A stretch of 64,000 nucleotides of DNA from a virus: IMG/VR virus record IMGVR_UViG_3300045988_180775; one strand, written 5' to 3'. Position numbers and translations under genes: made by a program. Shown piece by piece: positions 18,856 to 46,570 of the stretch. The notes below the pieces were generated by a model. It was not told the origin of the DNA. It saw nothing but the letters and a program-made list of their open reading frames with translations, and searched no databases. Each line of letters begins with the position of its first letter. The stretch's first letter is position 1.

Positions 18856-18884
18856 ATTATACCACACAATAGCTTACTTGTCAA
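18856..18884 (-). promoter_or_regulatory. sigma-A-type promoter (TTGACA-17-TGGTATAAT) upstream of sigma gene
   Basis: Minus strand TTGACAagtaagctattgtgTGgTATAAT. Member of a 7-copy promoter family. Confidence 0.65.
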
Positions 18885-21631: not shown

Positions 21632-22129
21632 TTAAAAATCGTGGACGTACTGCCAACTCTGCGGTGCTCTCGCAAGTGCGAAGCAGTCGAGGCTCTTGGG
21701 CCGGTCATAGGCCTGCACATCAGAGATGTGCCATCCGTATCCCACGCGGCCACAGAGGTAGTCCTCTGCTTGCTTCACGGTGAGGCAGGCGTCCTCATAC
21801 AGTTTCCCCGCTGGGGTGTAGTTTCCAGGTTGTGCGTTGACACAGTATTGAAGCGGCGCGTTGCTGCCCATATAGCCCACGCGCACCACACGGTCAATTT
21901 CGGTACAGGTAAACTCCCCTACCACAAGACCGTTTGCTTTGTAAATTTTGCCGCCGCTGTGGATTTCAAGAATTTCACCTGGGTTCTTTGTGCCCTTACA
22001 GGAGCAGTAGAGAAATACCATGAAGGGCGGCGTAAGGTTCGGTCTGGACAGGCGCAGCTCCACGGTCTTCTGGCCCGACAGGATTTTCTGGAGCCACTCA
22101 GGTCGGATGCTGAGCATGATGTTTTTCAT
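21632..22129 (-). CDS. ASCH (PUA-like) domain protein
   Basis: MKNIMLSIRPEWLQKILSGQKTVELR matches the ASCH N-terminal pattern. Trimmed to ATG 22129 with RBS GGAAAGGAGTTTTCCT. Confidence 0.6.
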   Translation of the reverse strand: MKNIMLSIRPEWLQKILSGQKTVELRLSRPNLTPPFMVFLYCSCKGTKNPGEILEIHSGGKIYKANGLVVGEFTCTEIDRVVRVGYMGSNAPLQYCVNAQPGNYTPAGKLYEDACLTVKQAEDYLCGRVGYGWHISDVQAYDRPKSLDCFALARAPQSWQYVHDF

Positions 22130-22170
22130 AGGAAAACTCCTTTCCGACGGCAAAAGCCGCCTTGTCTTGC

Positions 22171-22198
22171 TTGACAAAGCGGCTTGCTGGTGTATAAT
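22171..22198 (+). promoter_or_regulatory. plus-strand sigma-A consensus promoter (TTGACA-16-TGTATAAT)
   Basis: TTGACAaagcggcttgctggtgTATAAT. The only strong plus-strand promoter seen. Drives a short transcript ending at the terminator about 90 nt downstream. Confidence 0.6.
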
Positions 22199-22204
22199 AA
22201 AAGC

Positions 22205-22296
22205 AGAAAGGCGATACCGATAAGCGGTCAGCCTAAGAGAATAGAGTCAAACGAAATGACCGTCTTCCTTTGGCGAGGGGCGGTCATTTTCGTTTG
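22205..22296 (+). ncRNA. candidate antisense small RNA (type I antitoxin-like), about 90 nt
   Basis: Starts about 7 nt after the -10 box. Ends at hairpin gaccgtcttcc-tttg-gcgaggggcggtc (G-U wobbles favour plus-strand folding) followed by ATTTTCGTTT. Its 3' end overlaps the 3' end of the convergent 28-aa peptide gene. Confidence 0.5.
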
Positions 22297-22370
22297 CAAA
22301 TCTGAACTATCAGACCCACAAGGCCGATGATAACAAGAGAATACGCAAAAAGCGATTCGTAAGTAACCAT
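22284..22370 (-). CDS. 28-aa hydrophobic peptide, Fst/Ldr-like candidate type I toxin
   Basis: Unannotated ORF ATG...TGA encoding MVTYESLFAYSLVIIGLVGLIVQICKRK (polar N-terminus, TM helix, KRK tail). SD GGAGGGAGGTGAT sits 4 nt before ATG and is buried in stem cacttccct/agggaggtg. Own promoter lies upstream. Confidence 0.5.
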   Translation of the reverse strand: MVTYESLFAYSLVIIGLVGLIVQICKRK

Positions 22371-22452
22371 TGGCATCACCTCCCTCCACAGGGAAGTGCC
22401 GACCGCCTACCGTATATGGTAACGCCTTTCTGGCTCCTTTTGGAGCATTGTA

Positions 22453-22481
22453 ATCTTACCAAAAAGGCCCCGCTTTGTCAA
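22453..22481 (-). promoter_or_regulatory. promoter for the 28-aa peptide mRNA (TTGACA-17-TAAGAT)
   Basis: Minus strand TTGACAaagcggggcctttttggTAAGATtacaat. About 76-nt structured leader. Confidence 0.45.
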
Positions 22482-22644
22482 TTTCCGCCGCCCACGGTTT
22501 ATCCGCAGGTGGTTATTTTTTTGCCTCGGCTGCTGCATGGGGAAGCCGCACCCAGCCGCCCTTGTGACGAACAAGCTGGATTTTCTTCATAGGAGGCTGG
22601 GCCGGAGTTTCCGGCGCACCCGCCCGCCATTCGGCGGGGTAAAG

Positions 22645-22983
22645 CTAAAGAGCAGCGTCCTGATTGACAGGACATTCGAGACTCATGTTTTTTCTCTTCT
22701 CACAGGACTCTGCCTGCGACCACAAGCTGTTTGGTAGATTGAGCACCGTTACGAGGACATCCCCTGCAAACAGATAGACGTGCCGGTGATATACTCGAAT
22801 ATTGTTGATGGTTTTGTTTTTGAAGCGGATGGATGCAAGGTATCCATTCAGGTGGCCTCTGGTCTCCGAGTGCTTCACGCCAAAGTCAAAGGCTTTCTGT
22901 GCATTGCGCACGGCTGCTCTTTTGCCGAGACCAGCACGCTGTTTTGTACGCTTCCTCGCGTGTTTACTTACCTGCGCTGACAT
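22645..22983 (-). CDS. basic hypothetical protein (112 aa), doubtful
   Basis: Track ORF trimmed to ATG 22983 (MSAQVSKHARKRTK...). 20-nt out-of-frame overlap with upstream gene. Confidence 0.3.
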   Translation of the reverse strand: MSAQVSKHARKRTKQRAGLGKRAAVRNAQKAFDFGVKHSETRGHLNGYLASIRFKNKTINNIRVYHRHVYLFAGDVLVTVLNLPNSLWSQAESCEKRKNMSLECPVNQDAAL

Positions 22984-25897: not shown

Positions 25898-25926
25898 ATT
25901 ATACCACACATTAGCTTGATTGTCAA
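25898..25926 (-). promoter_or_regulatory. sigma-A-type promoter (TTGACA-17-TGGTATAAT) for helicase
   Basis: Minus strand TTGACAatcaagctaatgtgTGgTATAAT. Confidence 0.65.
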
Positions 25927-38766: not shown

Positions 38767-41259
38767 TCAGCGCCTGAAGGCAGCGCAAGTACGCTTCTGC
38801 TCAATTCGGCGCTTCGCAGCGGCTCTTGCTTTGGGGTCAGTCGTTATCAGGTATTCTTCCGTATCCGTCGCCTTAACATTGATGAAAATGTGGTTCTCAT
38901 TTGCGGTCAGGAGACAGGTTCCACGGTCCATGGTTTTTACACGCTTGAGTTCTTCGTCGGTCAGACCAATCGCATCCGCAATCGCGTTTGCTTCCTCTTT
39001 TTCGCTGCGCAAAATCATTTTGATTTTGGCGTTTCCAATGATGGCGGTGCCAATTCCCGCAGAGAAGAAGTCTGCGATATTCTGCGTGGCAGCGACGGCG
39101 CTTCCGCCGAAGCCTCGGATAGTACGGAAGATTTCGACCACGAAATTGGCGGCTTCGATAGGTGCATCGGAGCAGACCAAGCGCCAAGTCTCGTCAATGA
39201 AAACACACTTGTTGACGTTCCGATTTTCTTTGCATTTATCCCAAACATAATCCAATGCAAGGAACATAGCCACAGGAAGAAAGTCTTTCTGCGCATCGGA
39301 AACATCCAGCACTACGAACTTGTTGTTAAGGTTCACATTGGTTTGCGCGTTGAACGAAGATGCAGAACCTGTGGTGTATCGCGTCAGCAAACGGCACAAA
39401 CGATTTGCTGGTGCGCCCATCTTTTCCAGCTCGGAATATACGTCCGAAAGGATAGGCATTTTGCGGTATTTCTTCTTGTCGTTGGGGTCCAACAGGCTCT
39501 TGTTCTTATGGGTAATTCCGAAATTGCCGTAAGTTTTCAGCAGCGCGTCATCCACATACTGCACCTCTTCTGGCGTCATGTCCGGGATAATCAGCTTAAA
39601 GAAAATGAGAAGCTGCTGGATTTTCTGTGCCAAAATCGAGCCGGAAGTGACCAACGCACCATCGTCATCGTAGACGTTGCCCTCTTCCTTCTTGCGTATC
39701 TCCATGATATTGATATTCTGTCCGGAACCGGGTTTGATTTCAATGAAACTGCCCCCAACCTTCTCACAAAGCGGCAGGAACTCCTTGCCTTTCAGCGGCG
39801 CGATAATGAAGGTTTGAACCCCCTTCTCCCGCATTCTCAATGCCAGAACCTGCGTGGTGAAGGTCTTACCGGAGCCAGAGGAGCCGACAATATTGATGTT
39901 GGCATTGATATATTGCTGGCGGTCGAAGAAGTTGACCAGAACCGGTGATTTGAACACATCATCCACGCCCAGCATCACGCCGTCCTTATCGCACAGCTCG
40001 GAAGATGTGAACATATAGGTGGACGCAAAATCGGAACACAGAATATTTCTGCGGCTCTTACGGAATAGGTTTTTGTCATACTCACATACGGGAATGGTGG
40101 AGCGAAACGCTTCTGCTTGCTGGAAAGTACAAGGTTTAAGAGTCAATTCTCTCTCAATGAAAATGCGCCGGATTTCCTTGAATTTGTAGTCAATTTCTCG
40201 CTCGCTTTCACCTGTAATAGTGAGCATTGTAGACATATAGGCAAATTCGTCGCCGGCCGCGAGAGAGCTTTTCAGATAGTATCCTGCGTCCACCGCAGCC
40301 TTCACATCATCGTAGTCGCTACTGGTGGTTTCTGTGTTGCGGAAGCGCATTGCATTGAACCGCAGGCCATGATGCAGTGCAGTTTGAATCTTCTCCGGTG
40401 AAATCTTCTGAAGCCAAACATCCACATCAATCCCCTCCCCCAGTCCTGCCAGCAGCTGCATCCAGCCGCCAAGAACGCGCACAGGATAGGCATTGCTCGG
40501 AAGATAGCAGCACATATAGTAGATGCCATCCACGATGATATATCGGGGACTTGACTCCGTATCAATGCAGTACGGAGCAAGCACATCATTGACAGGAAGA
40601 TGCGCCGCGCTATCTCGCGTGAAGTCGATGTTTGCCGCCGTATATCGGGCAACAACATCCGCCATTCTCTCGTCAAACGGGTGGTTCGCGCTCTGTGCTC
40701 TGGACATGATATCGTAAAGCGTGGAAAGCACATAGACGTCATCGTGAGGCCTTGAAATCATAATGTTGCCGCAGGCCCGAAGGTTGCTTCTGATGGCGTC
40801 CTCCTGTCTCGTAATGGTGCTTCTGATTTCATTCCATGATGGTGAACGATGTGCGAATCCCTCTTCTTCCTCGTACTGGAATGCGAGAAAGAAGCGACGG
40901 GATACGCCTTGCGATGTGCCAAATTCTGACATCATGTCGATTTGCTCCCGCATCAGTTCACGGGTTCCTTCATTCTTTTCATGGCGCACACTTTCCACCA
41001 TGCCGGAAATATAGTGTTCGACATTTGCGCGATTGGACAGAACTTTGATTTGGACAACGCTTGGAAACGAGCGGATTGCGGCCGCATATTGTGCCGTAAT
41101 CATGTTCTTATCCTCGTTCGACCGTAAGCCGTAGTTAATGGGAGAGAACTCCATCAACTTCACAAATTTCCCGTCTTTCGTGACGATGATGCCGTCACGA
41201 ACATCGCTTATGGGCGAGAAAGATTGGCAGCTTATCACCTGTTTCAGTTTTCTGGACAT
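38767..41259 (-). CDS. T4SS VirB4/TrsE/TcpF-family conjugative ATPase
   Basis: Walker A IVGSSGSGKTFTTQ, Walker B CVFIDETW, about 830 aa. Typical size and position in Gram-positive conjugation loci. Confidence 0.9.
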   Translation of the reverse strand: MSRKLKQVISCQSFSPISDVRDGIIVTKDGKFVKLMEFSPINYGLRSNEDKNMITAQYAAAIRSFPSVVQIKVLSNRANVEHYISGMVESVRHEKNEGTRELMREQIDMMSEFGTSQGVSRRFFLAFQYEEEEGFAHRSPSWNEIRSTITRQEDAIRSNLRACGNIMISRPHDDVYVLSTLYDIMSRAQSANHPFDERMADVVARYTAANIDFTRDSAAHLPVNDVLAPYCIDTESSPRYIIVDGIYYMCCYLPSNAYPVRVLGGWMQLLAGLGEGIDVDVWLQKISPEKIQTALHHGLRFNAMRFRNTETTSSDYDDVKAAVDAGYYLKSSLAAGDEFAYMSTMLTITGESEREIDYKFKEIRRIFIERELTLKPCTFQQAEAFRSTIPVCEYDKNLFRKSRRNILCSDFASTYMFTSSELCDKDGVMLGVDDVFKSPVLVNFFDRQQYINANINIVGSSGSGKTFTTQVLALRMREKGVQTFIIAPLKGKEFLPLCEKVGGSFIEIKPGSGQNINIMEIRKKEEGNVYDDDGALVTSGSILAQKIQQLLIFFKLIIPDMTPEEVQYVDDALLKTYGNFGITHKNKSLLDPNDKKKYRKMPILSDVYSELEKMGAPANRLCRLLTRYTTGSASSFNAQTNVNLNNKFVVLDVSDAQKDFLPVAMFLALDYVWDKCKENRNVNKCVFIDETWRLVCSDAPIEAANFVVEIFRTIRGFGGSAVAATQNIADFFSAGIGTAIIGNAKIKMILRSEKEEANAIADAIGLTDEELKRVKTMDRGTCLLTANENHIFINVKATDTEEYLITTDPKARAAAKRRIEQKRTCAAFRR

Positions 41260-44293: not shown

Positions 44294-46570
44294 TTACCGC
44301 ATCCCCGGCAGCTTCCCCGACATTCTCGGTTTCCCTGTAGTCGGCGTAGAACTGAAGCTGCGCTTCGGCGGTGCTGGGCGCTTCCCACCCTGCGCTACAT
44401 CTTTTGCTTCGGCAGGCGTGGGGGCTTCCTTCGGTTTGCTTATGTCTTCCTGCTGCGGTTCTGTTTCGTCCCCTGCGCTTTCCAAGTCGATATCTGCGTT
44501 CGGCTTTGCGTCAACGGACAGTACCGGCTCCTGCTGTGCAGGTGGTGCTGAAGGTTCGACCGCCTGCTCCTCGTCTGTCTCGTCTACCTCGATGTATTCA
44601 TCACCGCAGTCCTCGACCTCTATCACATCGTCATCGGAGCCTTTCTTATTTATCTCCTTGACGTATGCAATAACGGCATCCTTGCTCTCTTCCCAAATGC
44701 TTTGTACTGGTATCGAGTTGCACATCCCCGTGTACGAACGGTCTACCTCGTTGATGTGCGGATGCGTGATATTGAAAGCGTCCAGAATATTTTGCTGACG
44801 CTGATAAAACAGCTCTCGCCCCTCTTTGTCGGTAATGGGTGGGATTTCACGGAAGTCAAAATTGCTGAGTTTCTTGGCGTCCGTATGAAGCGTGTGGGGG
44901 TATTTTTTCGCAAGTATAGGGTTATGCCCCTGAAAGATAATGATGCTGTCGTTCTTCCCCATCTTAAATGCTTCATCCAGCCCCACCAGCGCACGCTTAC
45001 CTTCGCCAGATGACCAGTTGTGAAGGAACTCGTTGTTTTTCAGCAGCGTTTCCATCGCCTTATGCTGGTTGGTCCGGACGTTTACGGTCGTATCACCGAT
45101 ACGAGAGGACACCATTTTCGCGGTAAATTCGTCGTTGATACCAAGGCTCACTAATGTCGAGCAGTTACTCAGGAGGGTTGCCCAGGTTGTCTGGTAGTTG
45201 TTCTGAAGCTGGGTGATGTCCTGAAATATCATACAGACATTCATGGCACGCTTTCGAATCGTCGCCATTTTTCGGTCAAAATCCGGAATCGTGCCGATTG
45301 ACGGAAACTCGTCCAGCAGGAAATCAACAGGGACATCGAGCTTACGGTCCTTGCCGTTATTATCCGCGTCGTTGATAAGGGTAATGAACAGCATGGAGAA
45401 GAACAGGGACACGATGAATTTGTAGGTGTCATGGCTGTCAGGGAAAATGCAGAAATAAGCGCAAGGCTGCTTTCCTGGAAGAGACATATCAATGCAGGGG
45501 GTGGAGAGCAGCGTCCGCACTTTTGCGTCATCCATAACCCCGATATCTGCCGCAAGGTTCACAATGAGGTTGCCGCGAAGATTCGGTGAGGACTGCTTGA
45601 AGGTCATGTACGGTCCGACGCAGGGCTGTTCCTCCGGCGTAAGACTGTCCGGGTCAAACATCATATCCAGATATGCCTCTCCCCCTGGGTTCTTGAGCAT
45701 CTGATGGACAGAGTTGATATTCTTCTTCTCAGGCGGGTAGTCATGTCCAAGCGCAACGCGCAGAAGGAGCGCCTTCAAAAGAGATTTCGGTCCGCTCTCG
45801 TAAATACCAGCACTCCCTCCGGCGTTGGAAATAATAACATTCGCAAAAATCTCTGCATTTTCGCCAATACGTTCTGGGTCTGCCAAAAGCGAGTCCATGC
45901 AATTCCAGCCGTCACTCTTGCTGATATTGTGCAGGTCGAAGCGTCGCACGACATATCCGTTGTCCATGAAGTACCTTGCCATATCTGCGTAAAGGCCGCC
46001 GTCCGGGTCTGTGAATATCAGGGACTCCCGGCGCTTTACCGCCTGGAAAGCGTAGTTCTTTGTAAAGGTATAGGTCTTGCCGCAGCCTGACGCGCCGATG
46101 ACGGCAATGTGCCGGTTCGCACGGTTCATCTTATCCTCTCGGAATACAATGGGGTAGCGGCCTGTCTCGTCCAGCTGTCCGAGGATAGTGCCAACTGCCT
46201 GCGGCTCATGCTGGATGATGGCGACATCCTCGTATTCTTTCGGGTCCTCAAAGTGCGCTTCTCCGTATGTCTTGCGGCCAATCGCCATGGAAAACAAGCG
46301 ACCCATCTTATCGACACCCGCTTCCTCGGAAGCGGAGTATGCCATCAGGATGGAAATGGCAATACCGATGAAAAGAAAACAGCCAAGGAACATCTTCCAC
46401 GGAAAGCCGTACTCACCGAAGAGGCGAATCAAACGGAACGGGTTGAGCGTGGACTTCACTACGGAAATGCTGAGAACAATCCCCGTCATGTAAATAGACA
46501 ATATGAGGACTACCAGCAATGCGATTTTCAGTCTGCGAATCAGATTCTGCTGTTGTTGAGTCATGGTCAC
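44294..46570 (-). CDS. type IV coupling protein (VirD4/TraG/TcpA family)
   Basis: N-terminal TM helices, Walker A VIGASGCGKTYTF, Walker B region FLLDEFPSIGTIPDF, about 758 aa. Confidence 0.9.
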   Translation of the reverse strand: MTMTQQQQNLIRRLKIALLVVLILSIYMTGIVLSISVVKSTLNPFRLIRLFGEYGFPWKMFLGCFLFIGIAISILMAYSASEEAGVDKMGRLFSMAIGRKTYGEAHFEDPKEYEDVAIIQHEPQAVGTILGQLDETGRYPIVFREDKMNRANRHIAVIGASGCGKTYTFTKNYAFQAVKRRESLIFTDPDGGLYADMARYFMDNGYVVRRFDLHNISKSDGWNCMDSLLADPERIGENAEIFANVIISNAGGSAGIYESGPKSLLKALLLRVALGHDYPPEKKNINSVHQMLKNPGGEAYLDMMFDPDSLTPEEQPCVGPYMTFKQSSPNLRGNLIVNLAADIGVMDDAKVRTLLSTPCIDMSLPGKQPCAYFCIFPDSHDTYKFIVSLFFSMLFITLINDADNNGKDRKLDVPVDFLLDEFPSIGTIPDFDRKMATIRKRAMNVCMIFQDITQLQNNYQTTWATLLSNCSTLVSLGINDEFTAKMVSSRIGDTTVNVRTNQHKAMETLLKNNEFLHNWSSGEGKRALVGLDEAFKMGKNDSIIIFQGHNPILAKKYPHTLHTDAKKLSNFDFREIPPITDKEGRELFYQRQQNILDAFNITHPHINEVDRSYTGMCNSIPVQSIWEESKDAVIAYVKEINKKGSDDDVIEVEDCGDEYIEVDETDEEQAVEPSAPPAQQEPVLSVDAKPNADIDLESAGDETEPQQEDISKPKEAPTPAEAKDVAQGGKRPAPPKRSFSSTPTTGKPRMSGKLPGMR

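Follow-up and report, generated by a model that had tools for sequence, protein, structure and literature searches.

Among toxin-antitoxin (TA) systems of type I, the closest to the locus described here are txpA/RatA and bsrG/SR4 of Bacillus subtilis. In both, a short single-helix peptide with an M-x-x-Y-E-S-L start and a lysine end (MTVYESLMIM...QKKK in the case of BsrG; PMC4342826) is encoded on mobile or prophage-like DNA, the Shine-Dalgarno (SD) sequence of its mRNA lies in a stem, and the 3' part of a convergent antisense RNA overlaps the 3' end of the toxin mRNA. The txpA/RatA duplex is cut by RNase III (PMC6563280), and SprG1, from the sprG/SprF system of Staphylococcus aureus, was identified through its homology to txpA/RatA (PMC8309996). 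These traits recur in a locus that we have analysed in the IMG/VR virus record IMGVR_UViG_3300045988_180775, a stretch of 64,000 nucleotides (nt) that is called the window below and is numbered from its first letter. Comparison of sequences makes it likely that positions 22149-22481 of this stretch (~335 bp) form a type I TA-like module aboard a conjugative element. The module is best placed as a divergent short-peptide branch beside the TxpA/BsrG/SprG group, in which the antitoxin RNA overlaps its toxin mRNA at the 3' end.

An initial annotation of this DNA had proposed a hydrophobic peptide gene with an occluded SD, facing a convergent small RNA (sRNA) across a common bidirectional terminator. 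This core is supported in silico by comparative evidence, and the positions given for all the sequence features were confirmed. The computed support consists of the conservation and coding signature of the peptide, the conserved convergent promoter, terminator and SD occlusion, and the covariation in the sRNA. The features of the module are the following:

22284 to 22370, minus strand: putative toxin open reading frame (ORF), 28 residues (MVTYESLFAYSLVIIGLVGLIVQICKRK) followed by a TGA stop codon.
22453 to 22481, minus strand: predicted toxin promoter, TTGACA-17-TAAGAT with a TG extension, 10/12 matches.
22371 to 22446, minus strand: toxin 5' untranslated region (UTR), ~76 nt from the predicted transcription start site, predicted to fold.
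22446 to 22433, minus strand: 5' hairpin within this UTR, in predicted folds.
22432 to 22398, minus strand: leader domain within this UTR, from CAGAAAGGCGUUACC to GGUAGGCGGUCGGC, in predicted folds.
22398 to 22377, minus strand: SD-occluding stem, in minimum free energy (MFE) and centroid folds.
22171 to 22198, plus strand: predicted sRNA promoter, TTGACA-16-TATAAT, 12/12 matches.
22205 to 22300, plus strand: predicted antitoxin sRNA of ~96 nt, made of a 5' stem-loop domain, a linker and the terminator T1 with its U-tract.
22204 to 22232, plus strand: 5' domain of the sRNA, repeating the toxin leader 22398-22432 in the same sense (inverted repeats I1 and I4).
22248 to 22296, both strands: predicted bidirectional terminator T1, a 17-21-bp hairpin (repeats I7 and I8).
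22149 to 22185, minus strand: hairpin T2 in the toxin sense, with 13-bp arms followed by UUUUG (repeat I2; -23.7 kcal/mol).

The minus-strand mini-ORF of 28 residues at 22370-22284 was found as first proposed, and its product is predicted to be a single-helix membrane peptide with a basic tail. The program-made ORF list contains an alternative start, a GTG at 22379 upstream. A start at MVTY is favoured by the 8 nt between GGAGG and ATG and by the conservation in the family, which sets in exactly at MVTY and runs to the basic tail. An exhaustive HMMER search returned 22 representative clusters (E < 0.001), and a profile search, whose query alignment was headed by an over-extended 71-aa gene call, collected 240 proteins (E <= 0.01). 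None of these 240 carries a precomputed Pfam domain, the sole name given to any of them is 'hypothetical protein', and most of the database entries of the family reach too far at the N-terminus. A scan with a degenerate pattern, covering one genome for each species, located at least 120 loci, from which at least 102 non-redundant complete modules with at least 80 distinct peptides were obtained; the promoter and SD statistics given below were computed over these 102 modules. The peptides are 24-35 aa long. The entropy of the family ORF by codon position is 0.92/0.61/1.55, and several synonymous codons are used at invariant residues, with all four valine codons present at V13. On this comparative basis the peptide family is real, widespread and hitherto unannotated. 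The peptide sequences do not occur in the literature searched, a sequence search of the PDB gave no relative, a PHROGs search gave no meaningful match, and the 551-bp locus had no match when plasmid and phage collections were searched at the nucleotide level. In three members of the family (P0005, P0023 and P0105), 1-nt indels near the C-terminus or loss of the stop codon take the ORF into the terminator (e.g. ...ICKRNDRPSPKEDGHFV), and these variants may be inactivated or attenuated toxins.

The promoter facing the toxin gene had been singled out as the only strong one on the plus strand, and this holds: 22171-22198 is the sole plus-strand site in the 64-kb window with at least 11/12 matches, and a 12/12 site is expected 0.01 times per shuffled strand. 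The TG before its -10 is not scored by the promoter scan as an extended -10. In the 102 modules, the antisense promoter has a mean score of 10.8/12, against 8.3 in a sense-strand control and 7.6 in shuffles; it reaches at least 10 in 78% of them, and its -10 ends at a median of 85 nt past the stop codon (interquartile range 83-89). The toxin gene's own promoter at 22481-22453 was also recovered, with 10/12 matches and the TG extension, and toxin promoters average 9.4, against the 10.8 of the antisense promoters.

As for the RNA made from the plus-strand promoter, the transcript of about 90 nt that was expected to end at a hairpin plus U-tract is predicted here to have 96 nt, with the hairpin at 22248-22296. 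It folds with -36.5 kcal/mol (z = -4.2), and the predicted sRNAs of the family are ~91 nt long and align well. When the terminator and the sRNA 5' stem-loop are considered together, 90% of the cells are paired, against 31-52% with slid partners, and 13 pairs are altered on both sides, against 6.6 in shuffles, with none of 500 shuffles reaching the observed value. The contigs L001-L028 are nearly identical across the locus and are therefore uninformative for covariation. The 3'-terminal ~55 nt of the sRNA are a perfect complement of the toxin mRNA's 3' end (its last five codons, its stop codon and T1), because both RNAs are predicted to end at the common palindromic terminator. The complementarity between the two is confined to this 3' end, and none was found at the toxin 5'/translation-initiation region.

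Convergent transcription to a common bidirectional terminator, as originally proposed, is borne out computationally by the repeats, the folds and covariation. The toxin-sense 5' arm of T1 includes the stop codon and the last Lys/Arg codons, and a stop codon within T1 is usual across the family. In an alignment of 34 sequences, T1 has compensatory changes in 8 of 11 stem pairs and 96% of cells paired, and some of this covariation sets synonymous AAA/AAG lysine codons against the opposite arm. The U-tract scores 7.2/10 in the sRNA sense versus 4.8/10 in the toxin sense. The motif UUURG is found in the apical part of T1 in 18 of 52 cases in the sRNA sense, against 3 of 52 for the reverse complement and 6% of shuffles, which fits a start of pairing by loop-loop contact. 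The second hairpin, T2, overlaps the -35 of the sRNA promoter and lies ~20 nt upstream of the start codon (22129) of the next gene downstream of the module; a similar hairpin is present in 49% of modules versus 16% of shuffles.

The burial of the SD in a stem, also part of the first description, was confirmed in both the MFE and the centroid folds and family-wide. In the window, the SD GGAGGGAGGUGAU forms the 3' arm of a 9-bp stem, CACUUCCCU (22398-22390) with AGGGAGGUG (22385-22377), closed by a GUGG loop. The pairing probability of the SD exceeds 0.8 in 84% of modules, versus 13% when the upstream leader is shuffled, and the stem is compensatory between lineages, CACUUCCCU/AGGGAGGUG in the window being replaced by CACUUCCU/AGGAGGUG in L033. 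In the family alignment of leaders, an RGGCGGUU motif is nearly invariant. A specific pairing of the leader GGCGGUU with the T1 5' arm UAACCGCC was considered, and the complementarity is conserved; however, cognate pairs (-13.7 kcal/mol) hardly differed from non-cognate ones (-12.6 kcal/mol; p = 0.08) and we do not claim it.

The module has a further trait in the 5' domain of its sRNA. The two repeats are inverted in the DNA, so that both RNAs would carry the same, and not a complementary, 5' sequence. Across the family, the alignment score between this domain and the leader is 23.6 for the cognate same-sense comparison, against 12.7 for the complement, 14.8 for non-cognate and 12.3 for shuffled sequences (p ~1e-14), which indicates at the sequence level that this domain and the toxin leader co-evolve, the domain being a copy of the leader, family-wide and in a lineage-specific manner. 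We discarded the idea that the repeats are terminal inverted repeats or an invertible switch, since in other lineages only the transcribed parts are similar and none of the fetched loci has the inverted configuration.

As the sRNA 5' domain copies the leader, a toxin-sense transcript reading through past T1 would carry the complement of the leader. It is conceivable, although we find it doubtful, that this complement serves as a 5'-3' lock like those of hok and aapA1: in read-through or upstream-operon transcripts, the 3' extension would pair with the leader in a ~28-bp helix that encloses and silences the toxin cistron. Our suggestion that the antitoxin gene is used on both strands, in sense as the antitoxin and in antisense, within read-through transcripts, as a cis lock on the leader or an RNase III site, is equally tentative. 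Besides the lineage-specific similarity (23.6 against 14.8 for non-cognate pairs), a lock is favoured by the duplex between leader and 3' extension, which has -46 kcal/mol for cognate and -32 for non-cognate partners (p ~2e-10), and by the fold of the window read-through RNA ending at T2 (-136.7 kcal/mol, z = -10.2), in which the ~28-bp helix is stacked on the SD hairpin; nevertheless, the SD is predicted to be just as inaccessible when the extension is missing, so there is no measurable gain in silico. The weaker T1 U-tract in the toxin sense (4.8 versus 7.2 of 10) and the presence of T2 in about half of the modules also agree with it, but the other half lack T2. The mismatches between the arms are biased towards those that are G.U-compatible in the toxin sense (55 versus 21, or 40 versus 20 when one conserved site is left out, p = 0.013); against this, many transversion mismatches occur in the helix across the family (49 outside the conserved site) and the mismatch counts are phylogenetically non-independent. 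Finally, no sigma-70-like promoter of at least 10/12 is found from the module to 18884, so that the downstream genes probably depend on read-through, whereas gene conversion between the inverted arms could yield an equal similarity.

The same-sense repeat could instead be a relic, if an inverted duplication of the toxin promoter and leader gave rise to the sRNA gene, with no RNA-RNA pairing between the arms; we give this origin a limited chance. The arms would then be kept alike by gene conversion, by a common protein ligand or by a common need for a 5' stabilising stem-loop. Consistent with such an origin, an identical 12-mer, TTGACAAAGCGG, opens both promoters of the window (repeat I3), partial duplications of the module exist (P0031, P0034 and the tandem arrays), and both 5' domains fold into similar stem-loops. 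However, elsewhere the promoters are alike only in their hexamers while the transcribed domains stay similar, and the directional G.U bias is not expected from conversion alone.

The comparison of profiles bears on the group to which the peptide belongs. It had been described at first as Fst/Ldr-like, and this did not hold: neither family is among the Pfam and NCBIfam matches of the window peptide and 65 relatives, whose affinities are with Hol_Tox and PepG1, that is, with the TxpA/BsrG/SprG group. The Pfam family Hol_Tox (PF16935) is matched by 25 of 65 family members, with a best E of 3e-8, and the window peptide obtains 17.3 bits (E = 0.0045), below the gathering score of 23.3; the family can thus be said to grade into Hol_Tox even though the window peptide falls short of that score. 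For NCBIfam PepG1 (NF041589), the window peptide has 14.1-14.4 bits and does not reach the equivalog cutoff of 70, and five family members match weakly, the best with E = 8.9e-5, all of them far under that cutoff. NCBIfam ComI is matched weakly by four members (best E = 9e-4). An hhalign comparison of the family profile with the single BsrG sequence aligned one column.

The arrangement had also been equated with those of par (plasmid pAD1) and txpA/ratA. The parallel with txpA/ratA is apt, and several differences from txpA/RatA and bsrG/SR4 accompany it: the peptides are shorter (24-35 aa, versus 38-59 aa in the TxpA/BsrG family), the overlap of the two RNAs would be ~55 nt if T1 is used versus ~120 nt in bsrG/SR4, the sRNA bears the leader-copy 5' domain and has no RNA homology to the Rfam BsrG family, and the hosts are gut Clostridia and Eggerthellaceae instead of Bacilli. 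The sprG/SprF system of S. aureus shares the 3'-overlapping convergent antitoxin and the mobile location, and its membrane peptide has ~31-44 aa, whereas all the scores of the present family are far below the 70-bit PepG1 cutoff. In the case of par (Fst/RNA I-RNA II of Enterococcus faecalis pAD1), the likeness stands for the convergent RNAs, the single bidirectional terminator, the SD sequestered by a 5' stem-loop and the mobile element, but not for the 5' repeats. The direct repeats DRa and DRb of par give complementary 5' regions in its two RNAs, while the 5' regions are here same-sense (23.6) with a complementarity at background level (12.7 versus 12.3 in shuffled sequences), and the peptide family has no Fst-family match. 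As for hok/Sok (plasmid R1) and aapA1/IsoA1 (Helicobacter pylori), they would resemble the module only if the read-through hypothesis is right, through a 5'-3' helix keeping the primary transcript inert until 3' processing; their antitoxins pair with the mRNA 5' region and here the complementarity is with the 3' end only, their peptides are unrelated, and the lock would here lie on the antitoxin gene's antisense strand.

The mode of action that we propose is drawn by analogy with txpA/RatA, bsrG/SR4 and sprG/SprF, and this applies to the two RNAs and their ends, their pairing in vivo, the role of RNase III, the toxicity of the peptide and its biological role; the mechanism of bsrG/SR4 is described in PMC8309996. 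A moderately strong promoter would produce the mRNA for the 28-aa peptide, with an SD intrinsically locked in the 9-bp hairpin, and the consensus promoter on the opposite strand would produce an abundant sRNA of ~91-96 nt ending at T1. The sRNA would pair with the mRNA 3' end over ~55 nt, probably starting from the complementary T1 loops, and the duplex would then be cleaved, most likely by RNase III, keeping the toxin mRNA low, while the occluded SD would limit translation from any mRNA that escapes. If the element were lost or sRNA synthesis halted, the peptide would be made and would damage the membrane, and the outcome could be the stabilisation of the element or the abortion of a phage infection. 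We consider that the sRNA more likely acts on mRNA decay than directly on translation, because the modelled accessibility of the SD is unchanged by binding of the sRNA.

Several observations weigh against a TA module of this type. The window peptide stays under the Hol_Tox gathering score (17.3 versus 23.3 bits) and far under the PepG1 cutoff; an Rfam scan of 21800-22900 found no antitoxin or toxin-mRNA family, the best being BsrG with 13.6 bits (gathering 55, E = 1.4); the SD is modelled as occluded with or without the sRNA, which offers no obvious route to translation of the toxin and gives no sign of translational control by the sRNA; and in one lineage the module directly follows a phage endolysin gene, a position also compatible with a lysis-accessory role. 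The last point belongs to a broader alternative, which we judge improbable, in which the peptide, as a small membrane protein, would serve the mobile element in a non-lethal way (as a ComI-like competence inhibitor, an entry-exclusion protein or a lysis-timing accessory) and the antisense RNA tunes its expression. The weak ComI matches of four members would fit such a role, as would the location after an Amidase_2 endolysin and the weak match of one member to a PHROG holin (E = 0.07), and YhzE-2, a candidate with an antisense RNA, was found to be non-toxic by Fozo et al. (PMC2887945). However, matches to Hol_Tox and PepG1 are stronger and more frequent than the ComI and holin ones, and the module is also found in non-phage, non-lysis contexts and as tandem chromosomal copies. 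In addition, the double repression by an occluded SD and by an antisense promoter stronger than the sense one is a hallmark of toxic products, and toxins under counter-selection are expected to have frameshifted or extended variants such as P0005, P0105 and P0023. The reading as a fortuitous mini-ORF flanked by fortuitous promoter-like sites is refuted: hydrophobic mini-ORFs and 10/12 promoter matches are indeed common (on each strand of the window, 3.4 of these matches are expected), but a 12/12 promoter is expected 0.01 times per strand, and the peptide, promoter and terminator and their spacing are kept, with a coding signature, in 102 diverged modules.

With respect to the hosts, the loci listed come mainly from Oscillospiraceae, Butyricicoccus, Anaerotignum, Lachnospiraceae, Peptococcaceae and Anaerovoracaceae, with several from Eggerthellaceae. 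The latter (Actinomycetota) contribute the contigs L063, L070, L078, L079, L086 and L113, with 61-65% GC, and the isolate genome of Adlercreutzia muris DSM 29508 (65% GC) has a complete module with an antisense promoter of 11/12 and a toxin promoter of 10.5. One published account (PMC12390103) places type I TA systems so far only in Proteobacteria, Firmicutes and Tenericutes, and a review on Clostridia reports that homology searches for known toxin families gave almost no positive clostridial species (PMC6563280).

The modules are located on conjugative elements, in prophages and on chromosomes, and are frequently in tandem (L030-L032:2146-2593, L061, L090, L112 and L140, the last with three copies); in L030-L032, two tandem copies 355 bp apart lie on the chromosome between the genes for GAPDH and an SLH protein. 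In P0031 and P0034, the database ORFs run from a truncated first copy into a full second copy. In the prophage lineage L033-L035 (e.g. L033:1780-2740), the module lies between an Amidase_2 endolysin gene upstream and a Bro-N gene downstream, and retains the convergent sRNA promoter and the common terminator.

In the window, almost all the genes are on the minus strand and include a VirB4-like ATPase and a VirD4-type coupling protein (38767-41259 and 44294-46570, minus strand), which is why we consider the element conjugative; a phage, suggested by the IMG/VR listing of its relatives, was abandoned in view of these two genes. Eight near-identical contigs of 27-136 kb (L021-L028) are catalogued as viral in IMG/VR, which would reflect either a misclassification or a phage-plasmid-like element. 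Two more 12/12 promoters with TG extensions are present on the minus strand (18856-18884 and 25898-25926), and the minus strand has no promoter of at least 10/12 from the toxin promoter to 18884. Expression of the six genes that follow downstream (22129 to ~18933) may therefore rely on read-through of T1 and T2 or on element-encoded sigma factors.

The 380-bp ORF-free gap in which the module had been placed is present, but at its upper edge there is a 25-codon IscB-like remnant and no intact gene. This remnant (22590-22513, minus strand) consists of the last 25 codons (MKKIQLVRHKGGWVRLPHAAAEAKK*) of an IscB-like gene, and the toxin -35 lies ~30 nt past its stop codon. At the equivalent place, the contigs L011-L020 have a full 464-aa RRXRR gene (PF14239, E = 7e-41), preceded by a HEARO RNA (Rfam RF02033; L011:1705-1868; 91.8 bits versus a gathering score of 83). 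The presence of the full IscB-like gene and HEARO in these relatives (L011:1705-3617) therefore points to a ~1.9-kb internal deletion in the window and not to a precise excision. Between the HEARO RNA and the IscB start (L011:1960-2200), four imperfect units of ~40 nt (GTTGACGTNCCCNCCAAATGACAGGTAGCTATACCC), ~66 nt apart, can be seen by eye; Tandem Repeats Finder did not report them in L011.

Two other observations concern the edges of the leader. In L008:640-740 (joining window positions ~22414 and ~24040), at low coverage, the 3' end of a UvrD-like helicase gene is fused to the toxin leader (...GAAGTA|TACGGTAGGCGG...), so that ~1.6 kb are absent, and with them three genes, the IscB remnant and the toxin promoter; the helicase ORF, altered in this way, terminates at a TGATG that overlaps an ATG located two codons upstream of the MVTY start. 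Either a true deletion variant or a chimeric assembly could account for this junction. In addition, at least 24 contigs from independent assemblies, L001-L007, L009 and L010 among them, begin 0-2 nt upstream of ATGCCAATGG, exactly where the SD hairpin has its 3' base (window 22376-22378). Partial products starting 1-7 codons farther upstream are absent from a 15-billion-protein collection, so these contig ends are not random; many other assemblies pass straight through this point, and the inverted repeat may have caused an artefact of assembly or sequencing here.

TA systems of type I have been considered narrowly distributed and are hard to find, which is the background to the annotation gap that this family occupies. 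A compact and essentially unannotated module is present at 100 or more loci in gut Clostridia, often in tandem, while its database entries are 'hypothetical proteins' or spuriously over-extended ORFs, and it reaches beyond the Bacillota into the Eggerthellaceae; if the TA reading is true, this could be the first type I TA family common to Bacillota and Actinomycetota. Recognizing the family should improve the annotation of mobile elements of the gut and gives a hint at how they are stabilised, and such a very small toxin/antisense pair could be a counter-selection tool where engineering of the organism is difficult. The sRNA's leader-mimic domain offers a concrete and directly testable regulatory hypothesis. 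If the antitoxin gene is used on both strands, this would account for the co-evolution of the sRNA 5' domain as a leader copy, and would represent a new route to hok-like fold-back inhibition inside a TxpA-type, 3'-overlapping type I TA system.

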